DNA from: Squalus acanthias
Lineage: Eukaryota
NCBI GenBank assembly: GCA_030390025.1
Contig: JASTWF010000070.1
Coordinates: forward strand, 372,001-436,000
Reading direction: 5' to 3'
Length of the DNA stretch: 64,000 nucleotides
Shown here in pieces: positions 14,437 through 61,612 of the stretch. Position 1 is the stretch's first letter; each line of letters opens with the position of its first letter. The notes below the pieces were generated by a model. The model saw only the letters and a program-made list of their open reading frames with translations, made no database searches and was not told the DNA's origin. The translations under genes were made by a program, and so were the position numbers.

Positions 14437-17400
14437 CTGTGTGTGGGGGCAGGAAAATTCATTAGTTTATGGAATCCGTCAGCAGTGGGACGCTCTGATC
14501 TAAAATCAAAGACAAAGAACCCCCGAACAACATTCACTTTAAAATAAATTACTGATTAATACAGGAGTTCCAATAAATTCTTAAATCTCTAATTCCTCTG
14601 CTCCTCTGCCAATTCTTTTGCCTACATTACAAAATTTACTTGGTTCAAAAGTATTACATTGGCTATAAAGCGCTTTGGGACCTCCTGAGGTCGTGAAAGG
14701 AGCTGTAGAAATACAAGTCTTCCTTTCTTTCTTTGTCACTTTCCTTCAACAGAAAATGCTGGAAATACAGACCGGGTCAGTCAGCATGTGTGAGGTGGAA
14801 AGATCAGTAACTGACCAGTTTAGGTGCAGGTTACACCCCCGGAACCGCACTAACCTGTCTGTTCCCGTTACAGACACTGACCGACCGGCCGTGTATTCCC
14901 AGCATTTTCTGTTTTTATTTGATTTTCTATAATTGCAGGATTTTTCCTTTTTACTTGAATAAAATAAAGCTTTTGATTGTCTTAAAATGCGGTCAGTGTT
15001 TAAAGTGGTGAATTCAGGGAGCTGTGACCCGCTTTTCACCGAGAGTCCACATATGTTCTGATACCTCAAACTGATGCAGCCCTTTCAAAGAGCCGCCACA
15101 GGCACGATGGGCCGAATGGCCTCCTTCTGTGCTGCATCATTCTATAAGATTGCGGAAGTTTTTTTTACAATTCATATTTTTTTTAGAATTCCGAGTTAGA
15201 TTCTGATCAGCTTTAAATGTTGCGGCGATGATAATTGAGCCGGGTCAGTTACCAGGTATTGAAGAGCTCACTGAATAAAGAGAGGACATTGTACACGGGC
15301 TGAGAATTAATGTAGTGACTCTGCCTAACACTATTGTAAATTATTGTAAATTATTTATACAGAATTACACAGAATATACAGCACACAAGCAGTTAATTCG
15401 GCCCAACCAGTACATGCCGGTGTTTATGCTCCACTCGAGCCTCCTCCCATCCTTTCTCATCTAACTCTATCATCATAACCCTCCAAACCATTCTCCCTTA
15501 AATGCATCTATACTATTCCCCTCAACCACTCCCTGTGATATCGAGTTCCACATTCTCGCCACTCACAGGGTAAAGTATTTTATCCTGAATTACCTATTGG
15601 ATTTCTTTTTGACTGTCTTATATTGATGGTCTCTAGTTTTGCTCTTCCCCACAAGTGGAAACATTCTCTCTGTGTCTACTCTATCAAAACCTTTCATCAT
15701 TTTAAAGACCTCTATTCGGTCACCCCTCAGCCTTCTCTTTGATGAAGGTTTTTCACGTTTTAATATTTCTAGTAAAATGAGGAACAAGGATTGTAAAAAA
15801 TTCTTGCTGCAGAGGCAAGTAAGGATTCCTCCCCGCGCGGGTGAACTGATTTGTCTCTCGGGATCAGCTCAATCTCGCTGATCCCGGAGCGATCCGTTCA
15901 ACACTGGGCGGTAGCGGCACCCGACAGATCAACCCAGGAGAATCGGCGCTATCCCCGGGGGGACACTGGACAGGGAGAGTCAGCAGACACAGCCTGGGGG
16001 AGGGGAGAGGGTCAGCAGCGAGAGAATGAGGTGGAGAGAAAGTTCCCTTCAACAAGCATCACCCAGTCTCACTCACACACACGGGGCTGGTCAGTGATTG
16101 TCACTGCGCCGCTCCATGTTAAAGCGTGGGTTCTGCTCCATAAACAGCGGGGAGATTGCGGATAATAAACTCAGACAGATTAAATATCGCAGCACGAAAT
16201 TCAGAATAAAACCGGTCCCGTCAAACGAATACAAGCCCGACTAGTCCCAGTGTTGCTGGCGCCAGGGAGTCGATCCAACCGCTTGTGTGCTGGGACAGCG
16301 GGTCTCGGGAGGGTCCTCTCTCTCTCTCCCAGCCCAGAGCCGGACACCCGACGGCTGCGGTCAGGGGGACAATACGCCACAGGAATAAAACCAGCAGCAA
16401 TATTGAAAGTTGCAAATGACGATAATTGGGTTGGGGTTCCCCCGGGGGCTCTCCCGCCGGCTCCGGGCAATCTTTCTAAAATCGGGCGGTGTCGACTCTG
16501 GACAATAGGAATAAATACACATACACAAAGAGAAGAAGTGAGGGACAGCATAGAATCATACATAACAGAAGGAGGCCATTCTGCTCATCGTCCCAGTGCC
16601 GGCTGTTTGAAAGAGCTCTCCAATAAGTCCCACTCCCCTGCTCTTTCCCCAGAGCCCTGCAATTTTCTCCTTCTCTCAGTGTAACATAGTGACATATTCA
16701 GTGTCCACTGTCAGAACTTCACAGTGTAGCTCACAACTTTCCTCTCTCTTTCTCCCGAATGATACCGGCGCTTAGAGGGTTAAATTACGAGGCCGGGTTG
16801 CATAAACTTGGTTTGTATTCCCTTGAGTTTAGAAGATTCAGGGGTGATCTGATCGAGGTGTTTAAAATGTAAAAAAGGATTCGATCGGGTAAACACAGAA
16901 ATACGATTTCCTCTGGTGGGGGAATCAAGAACCAGGGGACATCAACTTAATATTAGAACCCGGCCATTTAGGAGGGAAGCACTTTTTCACACAGACTCGA
17001 GTGGCTGAATGGCCTCCTCCTGCTCCTCTGTCACCATTTTATCAATCAGTGCTCCTCTGAGGGCATTGAAACCATCGTGCCTGTGCCGGCTCTTTGAATA
17101 GAGCTATCCAATTATTCCCACTCCCCTGCTCTTTCCCCAAAGCCCTGCATTTATCCTTTTCAAGTATTTGTCCAATTCCCTTTTGAAAGTCAATATTGAA
17201 TCTGCTCCCACCGCCCTTTCAGGCAGCGCATTCCAGATCACAACAATTCGCTGCGTAAAAAGAACTCTTCTCCTCATCTCCCCTATTGTTAGGAGCATTA
17301 AATGGTGTCAAACTTCATTTCAGCTGAGTATTATTCCCCGAGGCGCTTCAACAATTCCAATGCTGATCAGTTTAACATTTTTTGGGTATAAATAGATCCA

Positions 17401-17508
17401 ACATCAAAATTCACTGAATGGAGATTTCTCTTCCGCCCGGGATTTAAAGCGACTGTAAATTAATAATAATTGAAACAATGTAAACGATAGAATGAGAGAG
17501 TCACTTAC

Positions 17509-17862
17509 TCTTTATACTCAGGGCGGTCCCCGGTCCGAAGATGAATCCCGAGTCCCAGACAGCACAGTAATAGACGGCGGAGTCACCGGGCACCAGGGTT
17601 CCGATGGTCAGAATGTAACTGTTACCGGAGGCGTCTCTGGAAGGTTGAAAACTGTCTGTGAAGCCGGTGCCTCGGTTGATGCTGCCCCCGGTACCGTGAT
17701 GGAGCACCCACACCGGAGCTTCCCCGGGTCGCTGTCGGTACCACCACACATCCTTGCTGCCCACAGCCCCGTTCTCCATCGCACACTGTAACCGGGCGGT
17801 CTGACCCGCGGAGACAGGATCGAATATTGGGGACTGATTGAGGACGGGAGCCGCCAGGACAC
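17509..17862 (-). CDS. IgL: Ig light chain gene 1, germline-joined VJ exon
   Basis: AG acceptor and GTAAGT donor; 354 bp open frame: VLAAPVLNQSPIFDPVSAGQTARLQCAMENGAVGSKDVWWYRQRPGEAPVWVL...DSAVYYCAVWDSGFIFGPGTALSIK. V runs straight into an FGxG J motif with no RSS. Resembles my recollection of shark NS5/type I V regions. Confidence 0.95.
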
Positions 17863-26384: not shown

Positions 26385-26610
26385 GAGATAGTTTAGGTGT
26401 TTGTTGAGAGTCTCTGTGGCTTAACATTGCAAGTAAAATGACTGTTTCCGCCTGCTGTGGATTCTTTCGTAAATCTAATGGATCCCATTCGAGTTCGCGT
26501 CTCTTCCCCGCCTTCTTTTTTGATGACATTTTCAATGCAGCAAAATCCGCCGATGTGTCGAGTCTGGTCACGCAGGCCTCCCCGAGCCTGGAAAACATAT
26601 TAAAACAAGG
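26385..26610 (-). pseudogene. Relic copy of the gene A terminal (ITIM) exon and 3'UTR
   Basis: Reverse complement aligns with 38113-38345 (shares GACCAGA...TTTGCTGC...GTCATCAAAAAAGAAGGCGGG and CTAAACTATCT); acceptor CTCAG changed to CTCGG; Tyr codon lost. Confidence 0.75.
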
Positions 26611-30180: not shown

Positions 30181-30535
30181 TACAATTCTCAACTTTAACT
30201 GCCAAAATTAAAATACAGAACAATGACAAATGCGCACATCCATACCATAACCTTTCACTCACCCTCTCCGAACTATAATCGAAAGCACTTTATGTCCACT
30301 CTGCAATTTACATTAGACTGACCGCTGTGATGCACAGACACTGCCCACATGTAAAATACATGAGGCGTGGGATGCAACAGGATACTGCACCCAACGGCTT
30401 AGCTCGTAATAGTTTCCAACGTATCTGAAGGGGGTGTAACCAACTTTGTGTGCGCTCGGGTCACTCGGCGCCCACTCCGAATGTAGAATGTTGAGAGCAA
30501 GCACGGGAATAACTGAGCGCGGTGCCGGCCTCAAG

Positions 30536-30590
30536 ATGTTAAAGGAAGCTTTTTCCCTGATCCTCATTGTTCACGTGTTCTGGCCTTACG
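30536..30590 (+). pseudogene. VJ-C1-TM-ITIM receptor gene A, leader exon
   Basis: MLKEAFSLILIVHVFWPY-G; 55 bp; phase-1 donor GTGAGT; an in-frame upstream ATG at 30488 also exists. Confidence 0.75.
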
Positions 30591-31218
30591 GTGAGTGAGA
30601 CACGGTTGCGAGCTCCTAAATGGAATCAGCCAGAAACAATAGACTCTGTTTACTAAGTTGAAAATGTGACCCAGCTAACAGCTTTTGGGCTGCTATTTTC
30701 GCCCATTACCTATCTCTGTAACCTCCTCCAGCCCTGCTGCTCTCCGAGATCTCTGCGCACCTTCAATTCTGGCCACTTGAACAACCCCGATTTTAATCGC
30801 TCCAGCATTGGCGGGCCGTGCCTTCAGCTGCCTGATCCCTAAGCTCTGGAATTCCCTCCCTAAACCTCTCCACCTCTCTCTCCTCCTTTAAGACGCTCCT
30901 TAAAACCTACCTCTTTGACCAAGCTTTTGGTCACCTGTCCTAACATCTCAGTTTGTGGTTCGGAGTCAAATTTCTGTAAAGCGCCTTGGGTCGTTTAATT
31001 ACGCTAAAGGCGCTGTATCAAAGAAAGTTGTTGTTGATAATGTTGGCTTACTTTCTGGTCCTCCTATAAGGCGAAGTAAAGGCAATCTAGAGAATGGATA
31101 TAACAAGCAATAACTAAAGGCAATAATTATGCTGTTCTTAAATTACAGGCGAGGTGTTTCAACGCGGCTTCTTTCTATCGCTCAATAATCAGTTATAATG
31201 TAACAGTAATCCCTCTAG

Positions 31219-31550
31219 TTGCAGAGTCCCAGCCCTTTCTGGCTCGGAGCCCCTTCACAGTTACAGCCAGAGTCGGCCAGTCGGTTGAATTGGAATGTCA
31301 CCAGAATTATGAAGTGGAATTTGTGAATAGCTATTACTGGTACAAGCAGCGTGTGGGTGAAGCCCCGAGACTAATCGATATCCCATCCTGTAATCGGACT
31401 GATTGCAAGTTTACTTCTAAAAGAGGACACACCGAAAAAATACTGATCCTGAAATCCGCAATTTGCAGGTGGCTGACACCGGCTCCTATTACTGTGCTGA
31501 TAGGGATAGCAATGCACCGCTCGGGAATGGATCCACACTGCTGGTTGGAG
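31219..31550 (+). pseudogene. Gene A, VJ-type V-set exon with 1-nt frameshift
   Basis: AESQPFLARSPFTVTARVGQSVELECHQNYEVEFVNSYYWYKQRVGEAPRLIDIPSCNRTDCKFTSKRGHTEKILIL / (shift ~31450) EIRNLQVADTGSYYCADRDSNAPLGNGSTLLVG. 332 bp, one short of frame; GTAAG donor. Confidence 0.88.
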
Positions 31551-31640
31551 GTAAGAGCGAAACCAAATTGAATTCAGATCATGCACAGCAATATGATTCG
31601 GTGTAAAGTAAGAGTTAACTTTGTCCCAATCCCTGTCCAG

Positions 31641-31955
31641 ACAGTTCCACACCGGCTGTGCTGGTGTTTGCTCCGCCGGGGGAGCCGCATTTAAGGGACA
31701 CCGTCCCCTTGGTGTGTTTGGTCACTGGCGTCTCCTCGAACCAGATTGCTATTTACTGGAACGTTACCGGACAGTTGACCGAGGGACGGAGCGATTCCGG
31801 TACACTGGACCCGGACGGGACCTACAGCATCAGAAGCCATGTGATGGTCCCGAGGGAAGCCTGGAGAAGCGGCGGGGTCTGCACCTGTATTGTTGAGCTG
31901 GGTTCCAAGGACAAATCTTGGGCCAAGAGCGTGTCGCGCCCCAATACAGTGGCAG
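31641..31955 (+). pseudogene. Gene A, C1-set exon
   Basis: 315 bp open, CAG/GTGAGT sites: DSSTPAVLVFAPPGEPHLRDTVPLVCLVTGVSSNQIAIYWNVTG...DGTYSIRSHVMVPREAWRSGGVCTCIVELGSKDKSWAKSVSRPNTVA. C1 pattern (LxCLV, W, DGTYS). Confidence 0.9.
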
Positions 31956-32419
31956 GTGAGTCGGTGATCTGTTTAGCGACGGTTAGTTTCAGCTTTAGCG
32001 TCAGTTGGAGTAGTTCACTCGCTCCTAAGCGCCTCGCGTCTGTAAATAAAGCAACACCACGGGATGAGCATGAATATCTATATATCAGGAAAAATAGTGC
32101 GATCAGTCTGTTAAAAACTACATTGAAATAAGCTACGGTTACCCTCCGTCCCAGGTCTTGTAAATACTTTCTCCACTCTTGGCTGACTTTAGATTTCTGT
32201 GTGTCATCTTAGAATCATGGAATGATACAGCACAGAAGGAGGCCATTCGGCCCATCGTACCTGTGCCGGCTCTTTGAAAGATCTATCCAAATAATCCCAC
32301 TCTCCGCTGCTCTTTCCCAACAGCCCTTGCAAGATTCTCGCCTTCAAGTATTTATCCGGTTCCCTTTTGAAAGTTATTCGTGAATCAGCTTCCACCGCCC
32401 TTTCAGGCAGCGCATCAAC

Positions 32420-33060
32420 AACAACAGCAACTTGTATTTATATAGCGCCTTTAACGTAGTATAAAGTCCCAAGGAGCTGCTCAGGAGTATTTTAAGACTA
32501 CACATTTGACACTGATCCACATAAGGATAAATTAGGCCAGGTGACCAAAAGCTTGGTCAAAGAGGGAGGTTTTAAGGAGCGTCTTTAAGGAGGAAAGAGA
32601 GGTACAGAGTTTTAGGGAGCGATTTCCAAAGCTTAGGGCATTGGCAACAGAAGGCACGGCCACCAATGGTGGAGCGATTATAATCAGGAATGCTCAGGAG
32701 GGCAGAATTAGAGGAGCGCAGATATCTCAGGGGGCTGTAGGGGCTGGAGGAGATTACAGAGATAGTAAGGGGCGAAGCCATGGAGGGATTTCAAAACAAC
32801 GATTAGAATTTTGAAATCCAAGTGCTGCTTAACCGGGAGCCAATGTAGGTCAGCGAGCACAGGGGGTGATGGGTTAACGGGACTCGGCGCAAGTTGGGAC
32901 ACGGGGGCAGCAGAGTTTTGGATTACCTCAAGTTTACGTAGGGTGGAATGTGGGAGGCCAGCCAGGAGTGCGTTGGAATAGTCAAGTCTAGAGGTAACAA
33001 AGGCATGTATGAGGGTTTCAGCAGCGGATGAGCTGAGGCAAGGGCAGAGACGGGCGATGG
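32420..33060 (-). mobile_element. L2-clade LINE 3' fragment in the gene A C1-TM intron
   Basis: ORF 32708-33103 AETLIHAFVTSRLDYSNALL...LADLHWLPV. Confidence 0.8.
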
Positions 33061-33309
33061 AATGGATTGGAGTGAACGCGCTTTCTGACCTGACGCTGGT
33101 CAAGAGATGCGGTGAAATAGTTGGCTGAACGCGTCTGCTGGGATCAGACGCTCGCTCATTTCCAGCCGTTTATTTTCTCCTTTCCAGTTTTAAAGACCCG
33201 AACCACACTTATCAATCCCCATTTTCCCCGTGAAATAGATTTTCGTTTAATCGGGTTATGAAGCTTCACTGAAATTGGGTAATTGTTCCAGTTTATCACT
33301 CATAAAACA

Positions 33310-34015
33310 TGGGGGTGTATGTGCACAAATCTTTGAAGGTGGCAGGACAAGTCGAGAAGATTGTTAAAAAACATATGGACTCTTTGGCTTTATTAATAGA
33401 GGAATAGAGTACAGAAGCAAGGAAGTTATGCTAAACCTTTATAAAGCAATGGTTGGGCCACAGCTGGAGTATTGTGTCCAGTTCTGGGCACCACACTTTA
33501 GGAAGGATGTCAAGGCCTTGGAGAGGGATGCAGAGGAGATTTACCAGAATGGTACCAGGGTTGAGGGACTTCAGTTATGTGGAGAGACTGGAGAAGCTGG
33601 GATTTAATTCCTTAGAGCAGAGAAGATTAAGAGGAGATTTAATAGAGGTGTTCAGTCATGAATCATGAAGGGTGGTGATAGAATAAATAAGGAGAAACTG
33701 TTTCCAGTGGCAGAAGGGTCGGTAGCCAAAGGACACAGATTTAAGGTGATTGGCAAAAGAATCAGAGGGGAGATGAGGAAACATTTTTTTACGCAGCGAG
33801 TTGTTGTGATCTGGAATGCGCTGCCTGAAACGGCGGTGGAAGCAGATTCAATAATAACTTTCAGAAGAGAACTGGATAAATACTTGAAGGGATAACATTA
33901 ACAGGGCTATGGGGAAAGAGAAGGGGGGTGGGTCTAATTGGGTAGCTCCACCAACGAGCCGGCACAGCCGCGATCGGTTGAATGGCCTCCTTCTGATCTG
34001 TAATCATTCTATGTT
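33310..34015 (+). mobile_element. CR1 LINE 3' fragment
   Basis: QRRFTRMVPGLRDFSYVERLEKLG..RLRGDLIEVF; FFTQRVV. Confidence 0.8.
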
Positions 34016-34287
34016 TCAGTTTTCAAATAGTATGTTTTCATTGTGTATTATTAAAATTATGGGGCATAACTAAGAGTGCCGTCTGTCAATTTGTCTCAAC
34101 CACCAAACTGGTGCAATGTATTCCAATATGAGCTTTCACTTGTCCAATATGCGTCGCATTGGCTGATTTGACTTTCACACCCCGGGTTTGATGCTCCTGC
34201 ATTGTAACTGGATCAAGTTTCTCATAAGAGAATCCTAGAAATTAATGATTTGACCCAGATGCATTTTCTAAGTGTTTCTCTCTGTAG

Positions 34288-34389
34288 GGTGGTGCATTCT
34301 GACCCTTCCCTTTGCCATAACTGTCTCGGTGAGCCTGGTTCTGGTATTGATCCTCATTTCCATTTGGAATCATAAAAGCGGCAGATCAG
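34288..34389 (+). pseudogene. Gene A, transmembrane exon
   Basis: TAG acceptor and GTGAG donor; 102 bp, phase 1: GWCILTLPFAITVSVSLVLVLILISIWNHKSGRS; uncharged TM with membrane-proximal Cys. Confidence 0.8.
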
Positions 34390-34741
34390 GTGAGAATTTA
34401 CGTTTATCAGGAATATTTGAATAAAAGTTTGTTTAATGTGTCTCCCTTCTCGAAGCGTTAAATACTTATTACAGTTAATTGTTTCAGAAGAACGAGTCAA
34501 GAGACCCCACAATGAAAGGTGAGTAACTGAACCATTTACAAAGTTCATCAGTAACAGTCTCACTGTATTTAACACTGTGTCAAACCCAATTAACCGCGAC
34601 TCCAATTTAAACATTTTCCACGTTCTTTTAAGATTGAATCAAAGTCCATTCCGCAATTCTGTTTTCGATATTTATGGCATGTGACCAAGGATTTACAAGA
34701 AGTAATGTTTGTTTAACATTTTTGTTTGCATATAGTTTTAG

Positions 34742-34788
34742 TTTCACAGAGAGAACGATAAGAGCCGGAAGAAATGAACAACACTCAG
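34742..34788 (+). pseudogene. Gene A, cytoplasmic exon 1 (contains TAA)
   Basis: Phase 1->0 reading VSQRER*EPEEMNNTQ, strong CAG|GTGAG donor; stop at 34759-34761. Acceptor choice is ambiguous (34735, 34741 or 34749). Confidence 0.6.
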
Positions 34789-34984
34789 GTGAGCTGGATT
34801 GAAATGTTGGTTGAGTGAGAACATCAATTGTGGGTTATTTCAAAGATCAATAAGTGCATTTCCCGCCATCAAAATGTCCTGCCATCATTCCCCTGTCTGC
34901 CAGATATACAGAAAGGCAAATTATTGGTTATTAATGCTAACAAATATGTATCAGATGGACAATAGACGCCAGACACCGGGGGTG

Positions 34985-35330
34985 GATCATTCATGTCCAT
35001 CCATTGGTGTATTGGGATACCATTAGCGTAGTGGCGGATAATTGGCATAATGGGGGAACATTGACCTATTGCGGTACCATTGAAATTGGTGGACCATTGG
35101 CTTATTGTGTGATCAACGGACTTTTGGGGTACCATTAACGTATTGGCGTACCATTGTCGTTATGCTGGACCATTGTCGTATTGGTGGACCATTGGCATAT
35201 GGGTGGACCATTGGTATATTGGGGTACCATTGGCATTTTGGGGTGCCGTTGGCGTATTGCTGGACCATTGTCGTATTGCGGTACCATTGGCATATTGCTG
35301 GACCATTGGCGTATTAGGGGACCATTGGCG
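34985..35330. repeat. Degenerate minisatellite (GGACCATTGGCGTATTG-like units)
   Basis: Many diverged ~19-21 bp units containing ACCATTGG in the gene A intron. Confidence 0.85.
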
Positions 35331-35991
35331 CATGCTGCATCTATAATTAAATATAGATTAGCCAGAATTCATCATATTTAAATTCATATTCTTAACTGTT
35401 AATACACAGGTGACACCCATCAAATAGAGGCGAAGCGGACACATCAGGGTGCAACACATGTAAGTAAGTTCATTGAACCTGTTGGAATAATATACAGGAA
35501 CTTGGTGATTTCTGGGATGGGTGCAATGCGCCACATGCGGGATATTACACGCGGTTGGCATTGAGCAGGTCATAGTCCAGATCATTTTAATTTGCAGCGA
35601 ATCCCACTCGTTGCTCCAACTGGAAACAGAACATATCCCGCAGCCCTCTTCCCATCTGCTAATAGAAAGAACAGGTTAATGTTCCGGGTAGAATGCCTTC
35701 AACAGACTTTACTGCGGATTTCCAGCAGTTTCAGGTTCTATTTCAGATTTCCAGCTTTTTGCTATTTTCTATTCTTTTTATATCTACATTGAGGCAATGT
35801 CCGATCCCCCGACAATCCTCCGCCTCCTCCCATCAGGCGGAGATGCTGTTTTTGATATATTAGCAACGTTATTATTATGAAGATTCAGAAATAAGATGAC
35901 ACCCAGAATAGTTTCACAGATAAGTCAAAATATGTTTCTATGATAAGTCGTCAAAGATAGAATAATTTTGGAGAGAATGTGATTGTGTTTT

Positions 35992-36168
35992 NNNNNNNNN
36001 NNNNNNNNNNNNNNNNNNNNNNNNNNNNNNNNNNNNNNNNNNNNNNNNNNNNNNNNNNNNNNNNNNNNNNNNNNNNNNNNNNNNNNNNNNNNNNNNNNNN
36101 NNNNNNNNNNNNNNNNNNNNNNNNNNNNNNNNNNNNNNNNNNNNNNNNNNNNNNNNNNNNNNNNNNNN
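35992..36168. other. Assembly gap / masked N run
   Basis: N run flanked by TG-rich sequence. Confidence 0.99.
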
Positions 36169-36346
36169 GTGAGAGTGTAAGTGTGTGTGCGTATTGGAAT
36201 GTGTGTGTTTCTGTTAATGTGTTTGTGCGTGTGAGAGTGTTTGTGGGTGTGTGAGTGCGTGTGTGTGTGTCTGTGAGTGAGTGTCTGAGAGAGTGAGTGT
36301 GTGTGTGTATGTATGAGATTTTGTGAGTGTGTAAGTGCGTCTGATT

Positions 36347-36950
36347 ATCAGCCGTGGCTCAGTGGGTAGCACTCTCGCCTCTGCGTCAGAAGGTCATGGG
36401 TTCAAGTCTCACTCCAGAGACTTGCGCACAAAAATCTAGGCTGACGCTTCCAGTGCAGTACTGAGGAAGCGCCGCACTGTCGGAGGGGTATACTGAGGGA
36501 GCACTGCAACGTCAGAGGGGCAGTAATGAGGGAGTGCTGCACTGTCGGTGGGGCAGTACTGAGGGAATGCTGCACTGTCGGAGGGGCAGTACTAAGGGAG
36601 TGCTGCACCGTCGCAGGTGCCGTCTTTGAGATGAGATGTTAAATTGAGCCCCATTCTGCCCTCTCAGGTGGACGTAAAAGGACTCACGCCACTATCTCGA
36701 AGAAGAGCATAGGAGAGTTCTCCCTGGTGTCCTGGGCCAATATTTATCCCTCACCCAACATTATTAAAAAAACAGTTTATCTGGACATTATCTCATTGCT
36801 CTTTGTGGGAGCTTGCTGTGCGCAGACTGGCTGCCACGTTTCCTACATTACAACAGAAACTACAATTCAAATGTATGTCATTGGCTGTAAAGCGTTTGGT
36901 GCGTGCTGAGGTCATGAAAGATGCTGTGGAAATGCAAGTCTTTCTTTCTT
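36347..36950 (+). mobile_element. tRNA-derived Deu-like SINE with internal ~33-bp tandem expansion
   Basis: A/B-box-like head; repeated GCACTGTCGGAGGGGCAGTACTGAGGGAGTGCT at 36455-36610. Confidence 0.78.
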
Positions 36951-36954
36951 TTAG

Positions 36955-37325
36955 GACGTGTGATGGCGTGTGATTCTGTCTGGGTATGATTGATTGTGTG
37001 TGTGTCATTGAGTGTGAGTGTATTTGAGTGTGTAATTGAGTTTGTGTGTGCAATATTCTGTCTGGGTATGATTGGTTGTGTGTGTCTGTGAGAGATTAAG
37101 TGTCTGTGTGTGTGTGATTATATCTGGGTATGATTGATTATGTGTGCGTCATTGAGTGTGTGAGTGCGTGTGATTATGTCTGGTTATGATTGATTGAGTG
37201 TGTCTGTGAGAGATTAAGTGTCTGTGTGTGTGTGATTATATCTGGGTATGATTGATTATGTGTGCGTCATTGAGTGTGTGAGTGCGTGTGATTATCTCTG
37301 GGTGTGATTGATAGTGTGTGTGTGC

Positions 37326-37365
<40 letters not shown>

Positions 37366-37368
37366 GTG
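36955..37368. repeat. TG-rich compound tandem repeat
   Basis: Repeated TGATTATATCTGGGTATGATTGATT units plus (TG)n(AG)n. Confidence 0.8.
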
Positions 37369-37369
37369 A

Positions 37370-38060
37370 TTGAGTAAGGAAGTCTTGCTGGAATTGTACA
37401 GTGCCTTGGTGAGACCACACCTGGAGTACTGTGCACCGTTTTGGTCTCCTTATCTAAGGAAGGATGTACTTGCCTTGGAGGCGTTGCAACAAAGATTCAC
37501 TAGATTGATTCCTGGGATGAGAGGGCTGTCTTATGATGAGCGATTGTGCAGATTGGGCCTATACTCTCTGGAGTTTAGAAGAATGAGAGGTGATCTCATT
37601 GAAACATACGAAATTCTGAAGTGGATTGATTGAGAGGGTAGATGCTGAGAGGTTGTTTCCCCTGGCTGGCATGTCTAGAAGTAGGGGGCATAGTCTCTGG
37701 ATAAGGGGTAGGCCATTTAAGACGAAGATTAGGAGTAATTTCTTCACTCAGAGGGTTGTGAAACTTTGGAATTCTCTGCCCCAGAGGGCTGTCGATGCTC
37801 AGTCTTTGAGTATATTTAAGACTCAGATAGATAGATTTTTGGACTCTAGGGGAATCAAGGGATATGGAGATTGGGTGGGAAAGAGGAGTTGAGGTCGATG
37901 ATCAGCCATGATCTTATTGAATGTCGGAGCAGGCTCGAGGGGCCGAATGGCCTACTCCTGCTCCTAATTCATATGTTCTTATGATCTTTCAAAGAGCCAG
38001 CACAGGCACGATGGACCGAATGGCCTGCTTCTGTGCTGCATCGTTCTATGATTCCATGAA
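37370..38060 (+). mobile_element. CR1 LINE 3' fragment
   Basis: LVRPHLEYCAPFWSPYLRKD...RMRGDLIETY. Confidence 0.85.
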
Positions 38061-38138
38061 ACGCGACTGAAGGACGGGTAGTTTGACCTGCCTTCAAATA
38101 TCTTGAAATACAATGTTTAATATATTTTCCTGTCTCAG

Positions 38139-38225
38139 GGCGGCCCGCAAGACCAGATACTTTACGCCTCTCTGGAATTTGCTGCCTCGGAAAAGTCATC
38201 AAAAAAGAAGGCGGGTCGCGGATGA
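38139..38225 (+). pseudogene. Gene A, terminal exon with ITIM
   Basis: Pyrimidine tract plus TCTCAG acceptor; phase 0: GGPQDQILYASLEFAASEKSSKKKAGRG*. ILYASL fits I/V/L-x-Y-x-x-L. AATAAA near 38559. Confidence 0.75.
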
Positions 38226-38679
38226 GAATCCGAAGGGTTTCTATCCGATGGATGCGGGCAGAGACAGGACTTACAAAAGAACCCACAGCCTGCTCGAAAA
38301 AGAATGGAGCCACGGAGAATCCCGTCAAACATCTAAACTATCTGCCTGCACTCGGCAGAGTTTGCAAAAACTCTTTCATTTCAATGTAACGAACGTGCTT
38401 TGAGTATTGTAAAGATATTCCACTGTATTAGTGTAATTCAAGTGTGAGACAAACATTAAGAGCAGGAACTTCTCGGTTTGGTGTTTCTCTGAACCTTTCC
38501 TGCGCATCCTGCAGCTCCAGTTAATAACAAGATTTTTATTTGCAAATGCTTGTGTATTAATAAAATAAATTTTTCTCCGAATTTAAAGATGCACGAGAGG
38601 TTCCTATCGACCAATACTTCACTTATATTTAAATGTGATCAGGATAAAACTTCAACGACTATTGAGATGACAATATCGG

Positions 38680-39320
38680 TTTATTGCAAGGGGGTTGGAG
38701 TATAAAAGCAGGGAACTCCTGCTACAACTGTACAGGGTATTGGTGAGACTGCACCTTGAGTACTGCGTACAGTTTTGTCTCCTTAGTTAAGGAAGGATAT
38801 ACTTGCATTGGAGGCAGTTCAGAGAAGGTTCACTAGGTTAATTCCAGAGATGAGGGGTTGACTTATGAGGAATGTTGAGCAGGTTGGGCCTATACTCATT
38901 GGATTTTAGAAGAATGAGAGGTGATCTTATTGAAACATATAAGATACTGAGGGGGGGCTCGACAAGGTAGATGCAGAGAGGATGTTTCCCCTCGTGGGGA
39001 AGTCTAGAACTCGGGGGCAGAATTTCAGAATAAAGGGTCGCCCTTTTAGAACTGAGATGAGGAGGAATTTCTTCTCTCAGAGGGTCGTAAATCTTTGGAA
39101 TTCTCTTCCCCATACAGCCGTGGAGGCTGGGTCATTAAATACATTTAAGGTGGAGATAGACATATTTTTACAAGATAATGGAGTGAAGGGTTATGGGGAG
39201 AGGGCAGGGAAGTGGCTTTGAGCCCAAGATCAGCCATGATGTTATTGAATGGCAGAGCAGGCTCGAGGGGCCAAGTGGCCTATTCCTGCTCCTATTTCTT
39301 AAGTTCCTTTGTTCTTATGT
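38680..39320 (+). mobile_element. CR1 LINE 3' fragment
   Basis: FRTEMRRNFFSQRVVNLWNSLP. Confidence 0.85.
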
Positions 39321-42839: not shown

Positions 42840-43203
42840 TTAGAATTTCCGCTTTGGGCTGAAATTTCCCATTTGCAAAATCCGCTTGAAATTGCGTCGG
42901 TTCTGTTCGGCGTTAAGACTCTCCAGTAGACGATACGCCAGTTCTGCATTGGTCAGTCTGTCTTCCGAGTAAGTGTTAATTATTGATAATTGTTCATCAA
43001 GTCTGTCAGTGAACGTGAGATCACCGCAGTGGGACGTCAATTAAGATAGCAATTGAACCCTTCAGCTGCACGCCAGTGCTTCCAATAGTCGGATTTCTGC
43101 GGTGCTTTGGAACTTGAACCCGGCGTATCAAAGTCTCTCGGAAGGGTTCACACCTTAGGGCACTACTGCGCCGGTTAGTTTTCTGAATGAGATTGCCAAT
43201 TTC
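42840..43203 (-). pseudogene. Gene B, probable degenerate cytoplasmic exons
   Basis: 50-bp candidate exon 43154-43203 (GNWQSHSEN*PAQ*CPK, phase 1->0); downstream ORF segment ...EDRLTNAELAY...; AATAAA at 42643-42648 (-). The splice phase of the last piece does not fit cleanly. Confidence 0.4.
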
Positions 43204-44346
43204 CTGTCAATGGAACCCAAAAGCACGCGGAAGCGGCACACAATTGAGAAACAGGAGGTTTGAATTGTTACTGAGCATCGTGTCTTACTGATCCCACAAT
43301 GAGAGCAAAGCAGAGGGAACTTTCCACAAACGTCATATCCGGCAGGCACTCGCTTTCCTTTCCCGTCAGAGGGTCGGAAACGCATTAAACGCCAGGTGGG
43401 CGTAAAGAGTATATGAGAGAAAACAGAAACCATTATCATGACCCACATCATCATCATAGGAACAGAGGGACAGGAGGAGGCTGTTCAGCCCCTTGAGCCT
43501 GTTCCGCCATTCAATGAGATCATGGCTGATCTGTATCTTAACTCCATCTACCCGCCTTGGTTGCCTATCCCTTAATCCCCTTACCCAACAAGAAACTATC
43601 AAAAATCTCACAGTTTTGGAATTTCCAAATGACCCCCAGCCTCGACAGCTTTTTGGGGGAGAGAGTTGCAGATTTCCACCACCCTTTGTGTGAAGAAGTG
43701 CTTCCTGACATCACCGCTAAACGGCCTGGCTCTAATTTTAAGGTGTTGCCCCCTTTGTTCTGGGCTCCCCCCACCAGAGGAAATTGTTTCTCTCTATCTA
43801 CCCCATCGAATCCTTTAATCATCTTAAACACCACAATTAAATCACCCCTTAATCTTCTATACACGTTGGAATACAAGCCGAGTATGTGCAACCTGTCCTC
43901 ATAATTTAACCCTTTTAGCCCCGGGTATCACTCTGGTGAATCATCATTCTGCAATTTAAAATATCCAGATCTATAATTTTTTAATCTACGTTCGCATTTT
44001 TACATAAAAGGAAATCAGTGCTATCCTGTAGTGCTCACTATGCAAAGTTTTATGGACTCATTAACTATGAATCTTAAACATTGGATTAAAATCAGTGCAA
44101 GGTATCGACATGTGTTGAGCAAAAACAATTCTTTTCATATCTACCTCCTTGTCTTGTGCACGTGGTCTCGAATCGGTCAATTTCTGATCGCTGTTCGTGT
44201 TGCCTGATATAAAGACAAAATTAATCTAAGTCTAAATGCGCACATTTCACACTGAACCGACCCACTAACATGTAATGAGCCAATGACACAATAAATGGAT
44301 TGATTAGGAGCGCCGTGGAGTTGGAGCGTCTCCCGGCAACCGCTAC

Positions 44347-44463
44347 CTGACCGCCGGTTCCTGCAGCTCCTTCCCGCGGCAACAATAACCAACAGCAGAA
44401 GGAGAAGCGCCGCCGCTGAAGTTCCGTAAAGCAGTAATCTGCAGTTGCTTTGTAGCGGGGACA
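44347..44463 (-). pseudogene. Gene B, transmembrane exon
   Basis: Polypyrimidine tract plus CAG acceptor; 117 bp, phase 1: VSPLQSNCRLLLYGTSAAALLLLLLVIVAAGRSCRNRRS; ends TCAG|GT like the gene A TM exon. Confidence 0.8.
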
Positions 44464-47459: not shown

Positions 47460-47762
47460 CTCTCTGAGATGAGACACTTTAACTGATCAGATCCCCAGTG
47501 GAGTTGATTGGAACGGCGCAAATACAGACAGCGCCGCTGCTCCAAGTTTCCGCCGAGACGCTGACGTGACTCCTGACAGTGTAGGTCCCGTCCGGGTCTA
47601 TTGTCCCGGAATCGCTCGGTTCCTCGGTAACCTTTCCGGCATCATTCCAGCGAATGGGAAGGGAATCGGGAGACAGGCTTTTCACCAAACACATCAATGG
47701 GACCCTTTCCAGCGAGAGAATTTCATCCGGTGCCGGGGCTAAGAGATAGATTTCCGGAGACC
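47460..47762 (-). pseudogene. Gene B, C1-set exon with late nonsense codon
   Basis: 303 bp: GSPEIYLLAPAPDEILSLERVPLMCLVKSLSPDSLPIRWNDAG...DGTYTVRSHVSVSAETWSSGAVCICAVPINSTGDLIS*SVSSQR. TAA at 47479-47481 where gene A has K (KSVS). Confidence 0.9.
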
Positions 47763-48128: not shown

Positions 48129-48467
48129 CTGCAATGAACAATTTCGAGCCGTTTCCGAATATCAAGGGCATTCCGCTCGATTTCTTAGCTGCGCAGTAAT
48201 ACACCCCCGCATCATTCCTCTGGACATCTTTCACAATCAGAGAGTAAATACTGGATTCGTTGATAACCTGTCCGGAAAATCTTCCTTCAGGCGGCATGTG
48301 CTTCCACACGGTGTAAACTAGCTGTAGATGCTCTCGGTGCTGCCGCTTATACCAGTGCACAGCTCTAGCTGCTAACCAACCCGAGTGACAATCCACCTTA
48401 AAGATACTTCCAACGGAGACAGCCTGAACCGGCGGATTCTGGCGGAAAACTTCCTGAGAGACAATAA
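48129..48467 (-). pseudogene. Gene B, VJ-type V-set exon (open)
   Basis: 339 bp: VIVSQEVFRQNPPVQAVSVGSIFKVDCHSGWLAARAVHWYKRQ...EGRFSG...YSLIVKDVQRNDAGVYYCAAKKSSGMPLIFGNGSKLFIA. FGxG J motif in the same exon; GTAAG donor. Confidence 0.9.
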
Positions 48468-49146: not shown

Positions 49147-49189
49147 CTGGAAAGAGATGGAACAGCGCGCAGGGAGTTAAGAAGCTCAT
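49147..49189 (-). pseudogene. VJ-C1-TM receptor gene B, leader exon
   Basis: MSFLTPCALFHLFP-G; 43 bp; phase-1 donor GTCAGT. Confidence 0.65.
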
Positions 49190-50410: not shown

Positions 50411-51327
50411 TACCTCTTTCCCCAGGTTTTACTCCGGCGTGCTATTAACCAAACCTCGCCGCCGGGTGAGCATCATTTATGGGCACTGAGTGTGATTTTG
50501 GCCGCGCTCCTGTTCTTATTTACACGCTCAGCCTCCTGGTTCCTGGATTCTGCGCCCCTCTCATCGCCGCTGCAACCTAAGGCGCAATTCACATCTTGAT
50601 TGCATTCAATGTTTCGCAATTTCATTCTTGTTGTGTCACATACTGTGTCTGAGCAGTCAAACACTGCATTAATATAGAATACCTTCACTTTGATAAAGAT
50701 TGAAGCAAAGTTGACCATATTATATTTGGTGTATCAAACAATAATGATGTTTGAACCTTTGGTATTTTGCACATAGGTAACTGAAATTTTTTTCCGTTGC
50801 ATTCAAAAGCAATCAATTAAAAAGACTTGTGTCCATCGGAGTCCCTTGCAATGGGAGTGAATGCGGGGAAGGGTCGCTCCCTTTGAATTCTGCACATGTA
50901 AAATGAGCAGCAAGAGGGCTTGTGTGTTCAGGTTCTATATAATTACAACGAATGGACAGTTTGTTAATTAAATTAGAGTCAGGCCGTTCAGGGGTGATGT
51001 CAGGAAGCACTTCTTCACACAAAAGGTAGTGCCAATCTGGAACTCTCTCCCCTAAAAAGCTGTTGAGGCTGGGGGTCAATTGAAATATCAAAACTGAGAT
51101 TGATGGATTTTTGTTGGGTAAAGATATTAAGGGTCACGGAAACAAGGCGGGTAGATGGATTTAAGATACAGATCAGCCATGATCTAACTGAGTTGTGGGA
51201 CAGGCTCGAGGGGCTGAATGGCCTCCTCCTGTTCCTATGTTCATGGACTTTAATCTTTGTATCAAACATGTACGGAGTCGGCAAGAAAGTAACAAAACCT
51301 CAGTACTGCAATTTCAAAGTTTATTAG

Positions 51328-51590
51328 AAGGACACAGTCTCCTTACTGTGTTTTGTCAGTGGCGTTTCCTCAAACCGGATTGCTATTTTCTGGGATGTTT
51401 CCGGACGGGCTAACAGAGCGACGCACCGATTCCCGGTACAATAAACCCGGACGGGACCTACGGCAACAGAAGTCACATCAGTGTCTCGGTGCAAGCTTGG
51501 AGCAGCGGCGCTGTCTGTAATTTGTGCTGTTCCACTAGACTTCTCCAGCTAAAATATGGAGAAGAGCGTGTCGGGGAAAACTGTAGAGAA
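51328..51590 (+). pseudogene. Orphan C1-exon relic of the VJ-C1 receptor family
   Basis: KDTVSLLCFVSGVSSNRIAIFWDVSG../..GTINPDGTYGNRSHISVSVQAWSSGAVC/ICAVPLDFSS*NMEKSVS; several frameshifts and a stop; homologous to the C1 exons of A and B. Confidence 0.85.
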
Positions 51591-55678: not shown

Positions 55679-56007
55679 TCAGTCGGAACACGAGGAGGCG
55701 CTGATGGTCTTGACATGAGGCGAGCTCAGAGAGCCGTGGCTGACGCTGCAAGAATAGCTGGAGCCCTTGTTCCAAGCGGCGGCGCGGACTCTCAGGTAAA
55801 TGCTCAGGCTGTAGGTTTCATCGCTGTCCGGGGACACGGCGCCTGTCGTCACCCCGCTGTCTGTCTCTTGGCCATCCACGCTCCAACGGAGCCGCACCAA
55901 GCCCGGCTGAAAGCGACTCACCAGGCAGGACAGAGTGGCCGATCCCGAGCCGATTTCTTCCGAGGATGGAGGGAGGAGAAGAACCGAGGGGCTTCGATCC
56001 TCGCTGC
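55679..56007 (-). CDS. IgL: Ig light chain gene 2, constant (C1) exon
   Basis: 329 bp as in gene 1; open frame SSEDRSPSVLLLPP...KTISASSCSD*; AATAAA at 55369-55374 (-). Confidence 0.95.
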
Positions 56008-57460
56008 CTGTGTGTGGGGAGAAAGAAAATTCATTAGTTTATGGAATCCGTCAGCATTGGGACGCTCTGATCTGAAATCATGACGACAAAGAACCCCGAA
56101 CAACTTTCACTTTAAAATAAATTACTGATTAATACAGGAGTTCCAAGAAATTCTTAAATCTCTAATTCCTCTGCTCGTCTGCCAATTCTTTTGCCGACAT
56201 TACAAAAGTGACTTGTTTCAAAATTACTTCATTGGCTGTAAAGCGCTTTGGGACGTCCTGAGGTCGTGAAAGGAGCTGTAGAAATACAAGTCTTCATTTG
56301 TTCCTTTCTTTCTTTTTTTGTCACTTTCCTTCAACAGAAAATGCTGGAAATACAGACCGGGTCAGTCAGCCTGTGTGAGGCGGAAAGATCAGTAACTGAC
56401 CAGTTCAGGTGCAGGTTACACCCCCGGAACCGCACTAACCTGTCTGTTCACGTTACAGACACTGACCGATCGGCCGTGTATTCCCAGCATTGTCTGTTTT
56501 TATTTGATTTCCTAAAATTGCAGTTTTTTCCTTTTTACTTGAATATAATGAAGCGTTTGATTGTCTTAAAATGCGGTCGGTGTTAACTTTAAAGCGGTGA
56601 ATTCATGGAGCTGTGACCCGCTTTCCACCGAGAGTCCACATTATGTTCTGATATCTCAAAATGATGCAGCCCTTTCAAAGAGCCGTCACAGGCACGATGG
56701 ACCGAATGGCCTCCTTCTGTGCTGCATCTTTCCATAAGATTCCGGAAGGTATTTTTGGGATTCATATTATTTTAGAATTGCGAGTTAGAAACTGATCGGC
56801 TTTAAATGTTGCGGCGATAATGATTGAGCCGGGTCTGTTACCGGGTATTGAAGAGCTCACTGAATAAAGAGAGGACATTGTACACGGGCTGGCAATTAAT
56901 GTAGTGACTCTGCCTAGCAATATTGTAAATGCTTTACGTAGAATTACACAGAATATGCAGCACAGAAACAGACAATGGTCCCAACCAATCCATGTCGGCG
57001 TTTATGCTCCACTCCAGCCTCCTCCCATCCTTCCACATCTAACTCTATCAGCATATCCCTGTGTTACCTTCTCCCTCATGTGCTTATCTAGCCTCCCCTT
57101 AAATCTATACTATTCTCCTCAATCAATCCGTGTTGTAGCGAATTCCACATTCTCACCACTCTCTGGGTAAAAAAATCCCTATTTGATTTCTTGGTGTTAT
57201 CTTATATTGATGGCTCCTAGTTTTGATCTTCCCCACCAGTGGAAACATTCTCTCTGTGTGTACTCTATCAAAACGTTTCATAATTTTAAAGACCTGTATT
57301 CGGTCACCCTTCAGCCTTCTCTTTCCCCGGTTTGATGAAGGGTTTTCACTGTTCGATATTTCTAGTAAAAAGGGAACCAAGGAATGTAAAAGATTCTTGC
57401 TACAGGGGCAAGTAAGGATTCCTGCGGGTGAATTGATTTCTATGTCGGGATCAGCTCAGT

Positions 57461-59712
57461 TATTTTACAACTTCCAAAAAAAATATATTCCACTGAAAAG
57501 AAAAGGGTGTAAAAGAAAGGACAGTCATCCGTGGCTAAGTAAAGAAATTAAGGATAGTATTCGATTAAAAACAAGGGCATATAAGGTAGCGAAATCTAGT
57601 GGGAGAACAGAGGATTGGGAAAACTTTAAAAGGCAGCAAAAAATAACAAAAAGATTGATTAAGAAAGGGAAGATAGATTATGAAAGTAAATTAGCAAAAA
57701 ATATAAAAACAGATAGTAAGAGTTTTTATAGTTATATGAAAAGATAAAGGGTGGCTAAAGTAAATGTTGGTCCCTTAGAGGATGAGACATGTAAATTAAT
57801 GGTGGGAAATATGGAGATGGCAAAAACACTGAATGAATATTTTGTATCAGTCTTTACAGTAGAGGACACTAAGAATATCCCAACACTGGACAAACAGGGG
57901 GCTATAGGGGGAGAGGAGCTAAACACGATCAAAATCTCTAAGGAAGTGGTACTCGGTAAAATAATGGGACTCAAGGCGGATAAATCACCTGGACCTGATG
58001 GCTTACATCCTAGAGTCTTGAAGGAAGTGGCGGTAGGGATTGTCGATGCATTGGTAATAATTTTTCAAAACTCCCTGGATTCCGCTAAGGTCCCGGCAGA
58101 CTGGAAAACTGCTAATGTAACACCCTTATTTAAAAAGGGCAGTAGACAGAAGGCTGGTAACTATACACTGGTTAGCCTAACATCTGTGGTAGGTAAAATT
58201 TTGGAGTCCATTATTAAGGAAACAGTAACAGGACATTTGGATAATCATAATTTAATAGGACAAAGTCAGCATGGTTTTACGAAGGGGAAGTCATGTTTGA
58301 CAAATTTGCTGGAGTTCTTTGAGGAAGTAACAAAAAGAGTGGATAAAGGGGAACCAGTGGATGTAGTGTATTTAGACTTCCAAAAGGCATTTGACAAGGT
58401 GCCAAACAAAAGATTATTGCTTAAGGTAAAAAATCACGGGATTGAGGGTAATATTCTGGCATGGATAGAGGATTGGCTCTCTAACAGAAAGCAAAGAGTT
58501 GGGATAAATGGTTCATTCTCAGACTGGCAATCAGTAACTAGTGGTGTTCCACAGGGGTCAGTGCTGGGTCCCCAACTCTTTACAATCTATATTAACGATT
58601 TGGAGGAAGGGACCAAGTGTAACATATCAAAATTTGCAGATGATACAAAGATGGGAGGGAAAGTAGTGAGTGAGGAGGACATAAAAAACCTGCAAGGGGA
58701 CATAGACAGGCTAAGTAAGTGGGCAGAGATTTGGCAGATGGAATACAACACTGGAAAGTGTGAGGTGATGCACTTTGGCAGGAAAAATCCTAGAGCAATT
58801 TATTATCTTAATGGCAAGAAACTGGAGAGTACTGAAGTGCAAAGGGATCTGGGGGTCCTGGTGCACGAAACTCAAAAGGTTAGTATGCAGGTGCAGCAAG
58901 TGATTAAGAAGGCAAATGGAATGTTGGCTTTCATTGCTAGGGGGATAGAATATAAAAATAGGGAGGTATTGCTTCAGTTGTACAAGGTATTGGTGAGACC
59001 GCACCTGGAATACTGCATACAGTTTTGTGTCCTTACTTAAGGAAAGACATCCTTGCTCTCGAGGCAGTGCAAAAAAGGTTCACTCGGTTAATCCCGGGGA
59101 TGAGGGGGTGGTCATATGAGGAGAGGTTGGGTAGATTGGGACTCTACTCATTGGAGTTCAGAAGAATGAGAGGCGATCTTATTGAAACATATAAGATTGT
59201 GAAGGGGTTGGATCGGGTGGATGCGGGGAGGATGTTCCCGATGACGGGTGAGACTAGAACTAGGGGACATAGTCTTAGAATAAGGGGCTGCTCTTTCAAA
59301 ACTGAGATGAGGAAGAACTACTTCACTCAGAGGGTGGTAGGTCCATGGAATATGCTGCCACAAAAAGCTGTAGAAGCTACATCATTAAATAAATTTAAAA
59401 CAGAAATAGACAGTTTCCTAGAAGTAAAGGGCATTAAGGGTTTCGGGGAGCGGGCAGGAATTTGGACATGAGTCTAGGTTCGGATCGGTCATGGCCCTGT
59501 GGGTAGTGGAGCGGGCCCAGGGACCGTGTAGCCTGATTCTGCTCCTATTTCGTGTGTGCAATTCTGTTAGATGCAGGAGATGGTTCTGTGATAGATAGTA
59601 GATTGGCGGTTAGGATCAGATCAGCCATGATCTTATTGAATGGCGGAGCAGGCTCGAGGGGCCGATTGGCCTACTCCTGCTCCTATTTCTTATGTTCTTA
59701 TGTTCTTATTTT
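57461..59712 (+). mobile_element. CR1-clade LINE inserted in the J-C intron of IgL gene 2, with target-site duplication
   Basis: ORF 57751-59040 carries RT motifs; flanked by CTCAGT at 57455-57460 and 59713-59718; empty site in gene 1 near 15868. Confidence 0.95.
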
Positions 59713-61258
59713 CTCAGTCTCGCTGATCCCAGAGCGATCCGTTCAACACTGGGCGGTAGCGGGACCCGACAGATCAACCCAGGAGAATCGGCGCTATCCC
59801 CGGGGGGACACTTGACAGGGAGAGTCAGCAGACACAGTCTGGGGCAGGGAGAGGGTCAGCAGCGAGAGAATCAGATGGAGAGAAAGTTCCCTTCAACAAG
59901 CATTACCCAGTCTCACACACACACACGGGGCTGGTCAGTAATTGTCACTGCGCCGCTCCATGGTAAAGCGCCGGTTCTGCTCTATAAACAGCGGGGAGAT
60001 TGCAAATAATGAGCTCAGACAGATTAAATATCGGAACAGGTAATTCAGAATTAAATCAGTCCCGTTAAACGAATACAATCCCGACTAGTCCCGGTGTTGC
60101 TGGCGACAGGGAGTCGATCCAACCGGTTGTGTGCTGGGACAGCGGGTCTCGGGAGGGTCCTCTCTCTCTCCCAGCCTAGAGCCGGACACCCGACGGCTGG
60201 GGGCAGGGGGACAATACGACACAAGAATAAAACCAGCAGCAACATTGAAAGTTGTAAATGACGGTAAATGGGTTGGGATTCCCCCGGGGACTATCCCGCC
60301 GGCTCCGGGCATTCTATTTCAAATCGGGCGGTCCGACTCTTTGAAAGTGCTATCCAATTAGTTCCATTCCACAGAGTCCTGCAATTTTCTCCCTTCAAGT
60401 CTCAGTGTAACATAGTGACATATTCAGTGTCCACTGTCAGAACTTCACAGTGTAGCTCACAACTTTCCTCTCTCTCTCTCTCTCTCTTTATCTCTTGCTG
60501 CACCAGAATGATACCGGGGCTTAGAGGGTTAAATTACGAGGACGGGTTGCATAAACTTGCCTTGTATTCCCTTGAGTTTAGAAGATTCAGAGGTGATCTG
60601 AGCGAGGAGTTTAAAATGTGAAAAAGGATTCGATCGGGTCAACACAGAGAAACGATTTCCTCCGGTCGGGGAATCAAGAATCAGGGGAGATCAACTGAAA
60701 ATTAGAGCCCGGCCATTTAGGAGGGAAGCACTTTTTCACACAGGCTCGAGCGGCTGAATGACCTCCTCCTGTTCCTCTGTCACGATTTTATCAATCAGTG
60801 CTCCTGTGAGTACATTCAGCCCATCGTGCTTGTGCCGGCTCTTTGAGTAGAGCTATACAATTATTCCCACTCTCCTGCTCTTTCCACGCAGCCCTGCATT
60901 TATCCTATTCATGTATTTATCCAATTCCCTTTTGAAAATTACTATTGAATCTGCTTTCACCGCACTTTCAGGCAGCGCATTCCAGATCACAACAACTCGC
61001 TGCGTAAAAAGAACAATTCTCCTCATCTACCCTACTGAATGGAAGCAGGAAATGGTGTCAAACATCATTTCAGCGCAGTATTATTCCCCGAGGCGCTTCA
61101 ATAATTCCAATTCTGATCAGTTTAACATTTTCGGGGTATAAATAGATACAACATCAAAATTCACAGCATCGAGATTTCACTGGCACCCGGGAATGAAAAC
61201 GACTGTAAATTAATAATAATTGAAACAATGTGAATGACAGAATGAGAGAGTCACTTAC

Positions 61259-61612
61259 TCTTTATACTCAGGACGGTCCCCGGTCCGAAGATGAATCCCG
61301 AGTCCCACACAGCACAGTAATAGACGGCGGAGTCACCGGGCACCAGGGTTCCGATGGTCAGAATGTAACTGTTACCGGAGGCGTCTCTGGAAGGTAGAAA
61401 ACGGTCTGTGAAGCCGGTGGCTCGGTATATCGATCCATCGGTGTTATATCTTAGCACCCAGACCGGAGCTTCCCCGGGTCGCTGTCGGAACCAATTCATA
61501 TCCTCGCTGCCCACAGCCCCGTTCTGCATCGCACACTGTAACCGGGCGGTCTGACCCGCGGAGACAGGATCGGATATTGGGAACTGATTGAGGACGGGAG
61601 CCGCCAGAACAC
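61259..61612 (-). CDS. IgL: Ig light chain gene 2, germline-joined VJ exon
   Basis: 354 bp, intact splice sites: VLAAPVLNQFPISDPVSAGQTARLQCAMQNGAVGSEDMNWFRQ...YYCAVWDSGFIFGPGTVLSIK; no RSS. Confidence 0.95.

Follow-up and report, generated by a model that had tools for sequence, protein, structure and literature searches.

The closest described systems to the locus presented here are immunoglobulin-like genes that do not rearrange. The PRARP pair, attributed to Fu et al. 2019, and Xenopus VJC1, attributed to Ohta et al. 2019, reportedly combine a non-rearranging single-exon VJ with a C1 domain, a transmembrane (TM) segment and a cytoplasmic ITIM- or ITSM-like motif. Clustered families with both ITIM members and charged-TM members are also formed by KIR and SIRP. 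In the available parts of the literature on the NITR and DICP of ray-finned fish, such a split marks inhibitory and activating forms of a clustered family; the likeness to the shark genes is in design only, and NITRs are V-I, whereas the shark genes are V-C1. In elasmobranchs, UrIg and UrIg2 likewise have a non-rearranging single-exon VJ with C1; in the accessible part of the source (PMC12227049), UrIg is secreted, MHC-linked and built with three C1 domains, UrIg2 lies in the IgH/TCR complex, and the word ITIM does not occur. Non-rearranging VJ-C1 genes are proposed to be the precursors of antibodies and T-cell receptors (PMC10751288, accessible part), and for this reason the family is of importance.

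The window analyzed here is a stretch of 64,000 nucleotides of the Squalus acanthias genome (C3553:372,001-436,000; contig labels such as C3553 and C24 are internal to this analysis). Besides repeats of the CR1 and SINE types, it carries Ig light-chain clusters joined in the germline, together with a convergent pair of V-C1 genes, named A (+) and B (-). As in PRARP and VJC1, two non-rearranging VJ genes with C1, TM and tyrosine motif are linked, and A and B alternate in convergent orientation. Unlike PRARP, there are about 20 tandem units instead of one pair, light-chain clusters are interleaved with them, some members have a basic TM residue and no tyrosine, and the J motif of gene A is degenerate. 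V-C1 relatives were found in lungfish, paddlefish, sturgeon, caecilian, frog, turtles and alligator, which is reportedly the range of PRARP as well. Judged by architecture and by this range, we lean towards placing genes A and B in the PRARP/VJC1 group. In a tree of 47 rows with midpoint root, in which no sequence is named PRARP, A and B form clades with support of 100 and 98, and the V-C1-YxxL proteins of bony vertebrates form separate groups.

Gene A has eight exons in the window. The leader exon (30536-30590, with ATG at 30536) is followed by a single VJ exon (31225-31550), a C1 exon (31641-31955, Pfam C1-set, E 4e-11) and a TM exon (34288-34389) with a juxtamembrane Cys, from which TM positions are counted, and Thr at position 10. 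Three short cytoplasmic exons of 31 nt (34488-34518), 47 nt (34742-34788) and 50 nt (35410-35459, phase 1 to 0) lead to the terminal coding exon (38139-38225). The frame requires the 31-nt exon, and the 50-nt exon had been overlooked in the first-pass annotation. Pfam finds V-set and C1-set domains in both A and B, and in both the V and J-like segments share one exon through the G strand (327 nt in A, 339 nt in B). The J motif is FGNG in gene B and a degenerate LGNG or LRNG in gene A. An extra Cys pair (CNRTDC) lies in the C'-C'' region of the gene A V and is kept in most of the shark and ray relatives.

The VJ exon of the window copy has 326 nt, being one base short at 31451-31454 with an early stop in C1, compared with 327 nt in 19 of 22 gene A copies. 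Because of this loss, the gene A copy of the window is probably a transcribed pseudogene. It is less probable, although still worth considering, that the gene is intact and that the missing base is an error of the assembly or is confined to one allele. The loss is the sole lesion found in this copy, its site is a short run (GG/AAA), and there is a spliced contig without differences from the copy. However, frameshifts are common in the array, some of them recurring in duplicates (a 320-nt C1 is shared by the copies at 10,892 and 234,215), and the neighbouring gene B carries two substitution lesions.

The stretch 38139-38225 (+) is a real, spliced last exon of gene A. An AG acceptor at 38137-38138 directly precedes it and an AATAAA is found downstream at 38559. 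The phase-0 reading of the exon is GGPQDQILYASLEF; up to 38225 it gives GGPQDQILYASLEFAASEKSSKKKAGRG and a stop codon, and it contains the hexamer ILYASL at 38157-38174. This hexamer fits the ITIM consensus S/I/V/L-x-Y-x-x-I/V/L (10.1101/2021.06.11.448072, available text) and lies about 50 residues past the TM segment on the correct splice path. It is important to note that the window contains 247 ITIM-like hexamers over six frames, 25 of them AG-anchored on the forward strand, so that by motif alone ILYASL would be a chance occurrence. What places the exon beyond chance is the agreement of its frame with named proteins of sharks and rays, together with a spliced contig that starts precisely at 38139. 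With the C1 of gene A as query, ten elasmobranch proteins were found (C1 identity 62-76%), and nine of the ten end with YASL, then EF, DF or DL and a basic tail; this homology settles the frame. The first-pass annotation, which had proposed a phase-0 terminal exon of gene A with an ITIM-consensus motif at this position, was right in this respect.

The splice path upstream of this exon is different from the one first proposed, in which the donor at 34788 joined 38139 across 3.3 kb. The upstream partner of 38139 is the 50-nt exon 35410-35459, located 2.7 kb upstream. The tails of relatives hold two further segments, which map to 34488-34518 and 35410-35459, and with exons of 102+31+47+50 nt the chain is in phase 0 at its end and stays open into the motif. 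The donor at 34788 does exist, but its supposed phase-0 match fails: with all exons it is in phase 1, and only skipping of the 31-nt exon 34488-34518 would put it in phase 0. The path 34389 to 34742 to 38139 reads VSQRER and an in-frame stop before the motif. Joining 34788 to 38139 with all other exons gives another frame of about 80 residues without the motif, which matches no relative's tail.

Four sequencing runs, which are guessed to be RNA, were compared with positions 38075-38420. One contig each was found in two of the four, with a depth of 2-4, and the terminal exon had no cover in the other two. Both contigs start at 38139 with a loose 5' end and carry the joint 35459 to 38139, where the first-pass annotation had expected the junctions 34389-34742 and 34788-38139. 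The loose end of one of them, contig X1, is the last 30 nt of exon 35410-35459. This contig has 0 differences from the window copy over 171 nt, while the next-closest copy differs from it in 3 places and is without exon 3. DNA would hardly yield a joint placed precisely at splice sites. When the same four runs were compared with 30400-38700, repeats dominated and no exon joint was present among the matches listed.

The genome contains 24 matches to the gene A C1 at a level of at least 85%. Gene models were built for 22 copies, 21 in C3553:1-1,416,000 and one on C24; the copies on C185, on C3349 and at 46.6 Mb of C24 were left out of the models. All eight exons (L-V-C1-TM-c1-c2-c3-last) are present in 20/22 copies. 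Twelve copies have open frames of 337 or 339 residues and ten are without a full one, and nine of the twelve intact copies encode ILYASL. These counts indicate that the motif is current and not merely ancestral. The earlier idea that the gene A product was ancestrally inhibitory is thus retained with respect to its ITIM-consensus motif, but not in its restriction to an ancestor.

Among 21 gene A terminal exons, 14 have ILYASL, one has IFYASL, two have PLYASL, two have HLYASL and two have His in place of Tyr. YASL is therefore present in 19/21, with Ile at position -2 in 15/21. In the aligned elasmobranch relatives YxSL is found in 12 of 16. The residue at -2 is canonical in three of these twelve, namely Val in Heptranchias, Ile in Mobula and Ser in Narcine, and it is Pro, which is outside the consensus, in the other nine; the sharks with Pro include horn, zebra, basking and smooth-hound. 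The retention of YxSL in relatives which differ at -2 suggests that the core of the motif is old and that residue -2 is variable. The database models XP_067878563/4 and XP_067878566 (Heterodontus), XP_067832007 (Heptranchias), XP_078095903 (Mustelus), XP_048381739 (Stegostoma) and XP_072139900 (Mobula), together with the gene B model XP_067878575, have the same domains, tail exons and YxSL. The RefSeq elasmobranch models are named Ig or TCR chain-like by similarity only; they have a TM segment and a tail, and their clades are apart from the IgL and TCR-like rows. In the horn shark isoforms P0001 and P0007 the TM exon is skipped and the tail is still in frame. A PDB search returned generic antibody chains only.

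The exon 38139-38225 is best read as the last exon of a non-rearranging V-C1-TM receptor, in which ILYASL would make the intact members inhibitory by docking SH2 phosphatases once phosphorylated. On the sequence evidence, we give this reading a probability of about 0.72. In the proposed mechanism the V loops would bind a variable ligand, and the receptor could dimerize through the juxtamembrane Cys as A-A or A-B. The motif tyrosine would then be phosphorylated and would dock SHP-1/2, with the dimer supplying two phosphotyrosines. Copies in which the membrane segment holds Lys or Arg and the tyrosine is missing may be activating partners that use an ITAM adaptor. The presence of one tyrosine motif per chain, in A as in B, counts against the inhibitory reading, and so does the Pro at -2 in nine of the twelve relatives with YxSL.

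Selection within the array was estimated from the gene A copies. The terminal exon has 7 synonymous and 25 non-synonymous changes within the genome, against 11/21 and 9/23 in the other two frames, which gives no purifying signal. This test did not single out the motif frame and was set aside as evidence for it. The lack of a purifying signal on the terminal exon calls for caution in reading much into each single copy. The pN/pS value is 1.85 for the terminal exon and 1.42 for the A-type C1; apart from c1-c3, all regions of A have values near 1 or higher. For 11 distinct intact V sequences pN/pS is about 3 or more in windows over the V loops, compared with 0.53 for the framework. Since the A-type C1 is also above 1, relaxed selection could explain a part of the V signal.

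These values bear on an alternative in which the array arose chiefly as a side effect, genes A and B having been carried along in the amplification of the light-chain clusters and left to neutral drift, so that the Lys and His variants represent decay and not activating partners. The pN/pS values outside c1-c3, the fraction of copies without a full open frame (10/22 for A, 8/17 for B) and the long recent duplications in C3553 are all as this alternative would have it. Nevertheless we regard it as unlikely. The change of Thr to Lys takes two base changes (ACT to AAA or AAG), two other sharks also combine a basic residue with a short tail, the changes in V are located in loops, and the horn shark likewise has many A copies.

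It is still less likely that the tyrosine motif is a sorting or internalization signal (YxxL), or that it docks some other SH2 adaptor and not an inhibitory phosphatase. Such a role would agree with the single motif on each chain and with the fact that only Tyr and Leu+3 are constant, position -2 being Pro in several sharks and His in two of the dogfish copies. It would agree less well with the canonical residue at -2 in 15/21 of the dogfish exons and in Heptranchias, Mobula and Narcine, or with the canonical motifs in bony-vertebrate relatives (for example, IIYAQL, ILYAHL, VTYAHL and LTYSAI). It also leaves aside that loss of the motif accompanies a basic TM residue. Two other identities were rejected: a rearranging TCR or Ig chain, by the joined VJ, the uncharged TM segment in most copies, the 70-residue tail and the position outside the IgL/TCR-like clade, and UrIg or UrIg2, by domain number, secretion and linkage.

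An inhibitory receptor is expected to have no charged residue in the TM segment. The residue at TM position 10 is Thr or Ile in 18/22 gene A copies, the window copy included, and all 18 have YASL; in the remaining four it is Lys. The tyrosine is absent in 3/4 Lys copies compared with 0/18 of the others (Fisher p 0.003, for copies which are not independent). The Lys copy at 868,688 has lost the motif exon, keeps the 3'UTR and AATAAA and has an open, short-tailed frame. Those at 1,316,386 (intact) and 1,200,034 (broken) have the same change of Tyr to His and probably share one origin for it, and the Lys copy at 1,095,705 keeps ILYASL. At position 10, the database models of horn shark (P0021) and sawshark (P0004/P0016) carry Arg, and they end before the motif; their short tails could be annotation truncations. 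The Lys or Arg falls inside the most hydrophobic 21-residue window in copies 868,688 and 1,316,386, horn shark P0021 and sawshark P0016. A rule for charged TM residues stands alongside the ITIM rule in the available text of 10.1101/2021.06.11.448072. The split between Lys or Arg and tyrosine in the gene A family may be the signature of paired receptors, which we rate as a lead at about even odds because the copies are not independent and the tails of the database models are possibly truncated.

A broader proposal is more tentative and in our estimate falls somewhat short of even odds. Sharks may keep an expanded and diversifying paired system of VJ-C1 chains resembling antigen-receptor precursors, with inhibitory A and B and activating Lys/Arg A, co-amplified in a single cassette with light-chain clusters of sigma-2 type. 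The ITIM exon by itself is ordinary. The interest lies in an array in which intact inhibitory-type members, candidate activating members and light-chain genes share a repeat unit, and which supplies actual genes with which the ligands and the signalling of such receptors can be studied. If the proposal is true, the array would offer a present-day model for signalling by TCR-shaped germline receptors before rearrangement, in both on and off versions. A literature search found no paper on such a family in sharks, and the three most relevant J Immunol papers may already mention one.

Gene B lies on the reverse strand and consists of a leader exon (49147-49189), a single VJ exon (48129-48467, ending FGNGSKLFI), a C1 exon (47460-47762), a TM exon (44347-44463), a cytoplasmic exon (44145-44203) and a terminal exon (43366-43410), which reads TLYAHLAFNAFPTL and a stop. 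The C1 of the window copy has an in-frame TAA, and the acceptor of its terminal exon is AT, where 16/17 copies have AG. The gene B of the window is a pseudogene. The horn shark orthologue ends ETLYARL and maps to the window tail ETLYAHL in the terminal exon 43410-43366, and the motif is TLYAHL in 15/17 gene B copies and TLFAHL in 2/17. Nine of the 17 copies are intact; these counts omit six rows with 65-66% V, which belong to another subfamily, and two 301-residue frames running into LINE sequence were scored as non-intact. The suggestion that gene B may have carried an ITIM was thus correct as to a tyrosine motif and misplaced as to its site, which had been taken to be LTNAEL (42940-42957, -). 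LTNAEL is located in the 3'UTR, about 400 nt beyond the stop at 43366, and as a decayed ITIM it is rejected, with Tyr in 0/16 mappable copies and an AG acceptor in 3/16.

Two gene B copies (C3553 1,214,701-1,216,149 and 1,331,042-1,332,490) have LINE-like sequence inside the V exon, and both carry TLFAHL. A third V-C1 subfamily with 65-66% DNA identity to the gene B V is found in C3553 at about 105,759, 131,691, 1,067,606, 1,227,849 and 1,339,887, with a further piece on C24.

Genes A and B and the light-chain clusters alternate in units of about 50-70 kb over 1.39 Mb, with about 20 copies of A. In the window, one germline-joined light-chain cluster occupies 14114-17848 (-), with V at 17848-17513 and C at 14434-14114, and a second occupies 55685-61598 (-). 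Among the light-chain V matches, 46/51 continue in frame into J. Sigma-2 is the likely isotype, as read from the adjacency of two accessions: XP_051901911 is IgL sigma-2 (PMC12227049, accessible part), and the sawfish B-type protein is XP_051901910. An orphan light-chain C exon at 4236-4499 (+) has a 21-base internal deletion and lies on the strand opposite to the other clusters of the window.

RRNAD1 is located about 215 kb to the right of the last light-chain gene. The right flank (L167:5954-8566 (+); L168:5563-6165 (+); L150, L152, L156, L157, L160) contains a single-ORF TLR (LRR and TIR) and RRNAD1/METTL25B, dermatopontin-like, perilipin and Ras-like sequences. In horn shark, Heptranchias, Scyliorhinus torazame, Narcine and a caecilian, the longest contig recorded for RRNAD1 has the same length as that recorded for the receptor relatives, which suggests an old linkage. 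In human, RRNAD1 is presumably at 1q23, in the CD1 region. A search for TLR18 together with RRNAD1 gave nothing.

Long near-identical direct and inverted duplications connect C3553 at about 4-48 kb with 227-272 kb and at 263-370 kb with 540-667 kb. With the same lesions at 10,892 and 234,215, they are either duplications of recent date or redundant haplotypes in the assembly. An inverted, frameshifted relic of an A-type terminal exon without the tyrosine is found at 26507-26604 (-). Such relics lie about 3-5 kb upstream of most A copies in C3553, some with TM, c1 and terminal exon and others with the terminal exon alone, and the TM of the relics mostly has Arg at position 17. A degenerate C1 fragment at 51316-51518 (+), head to head with gene B, is repeated in many units.
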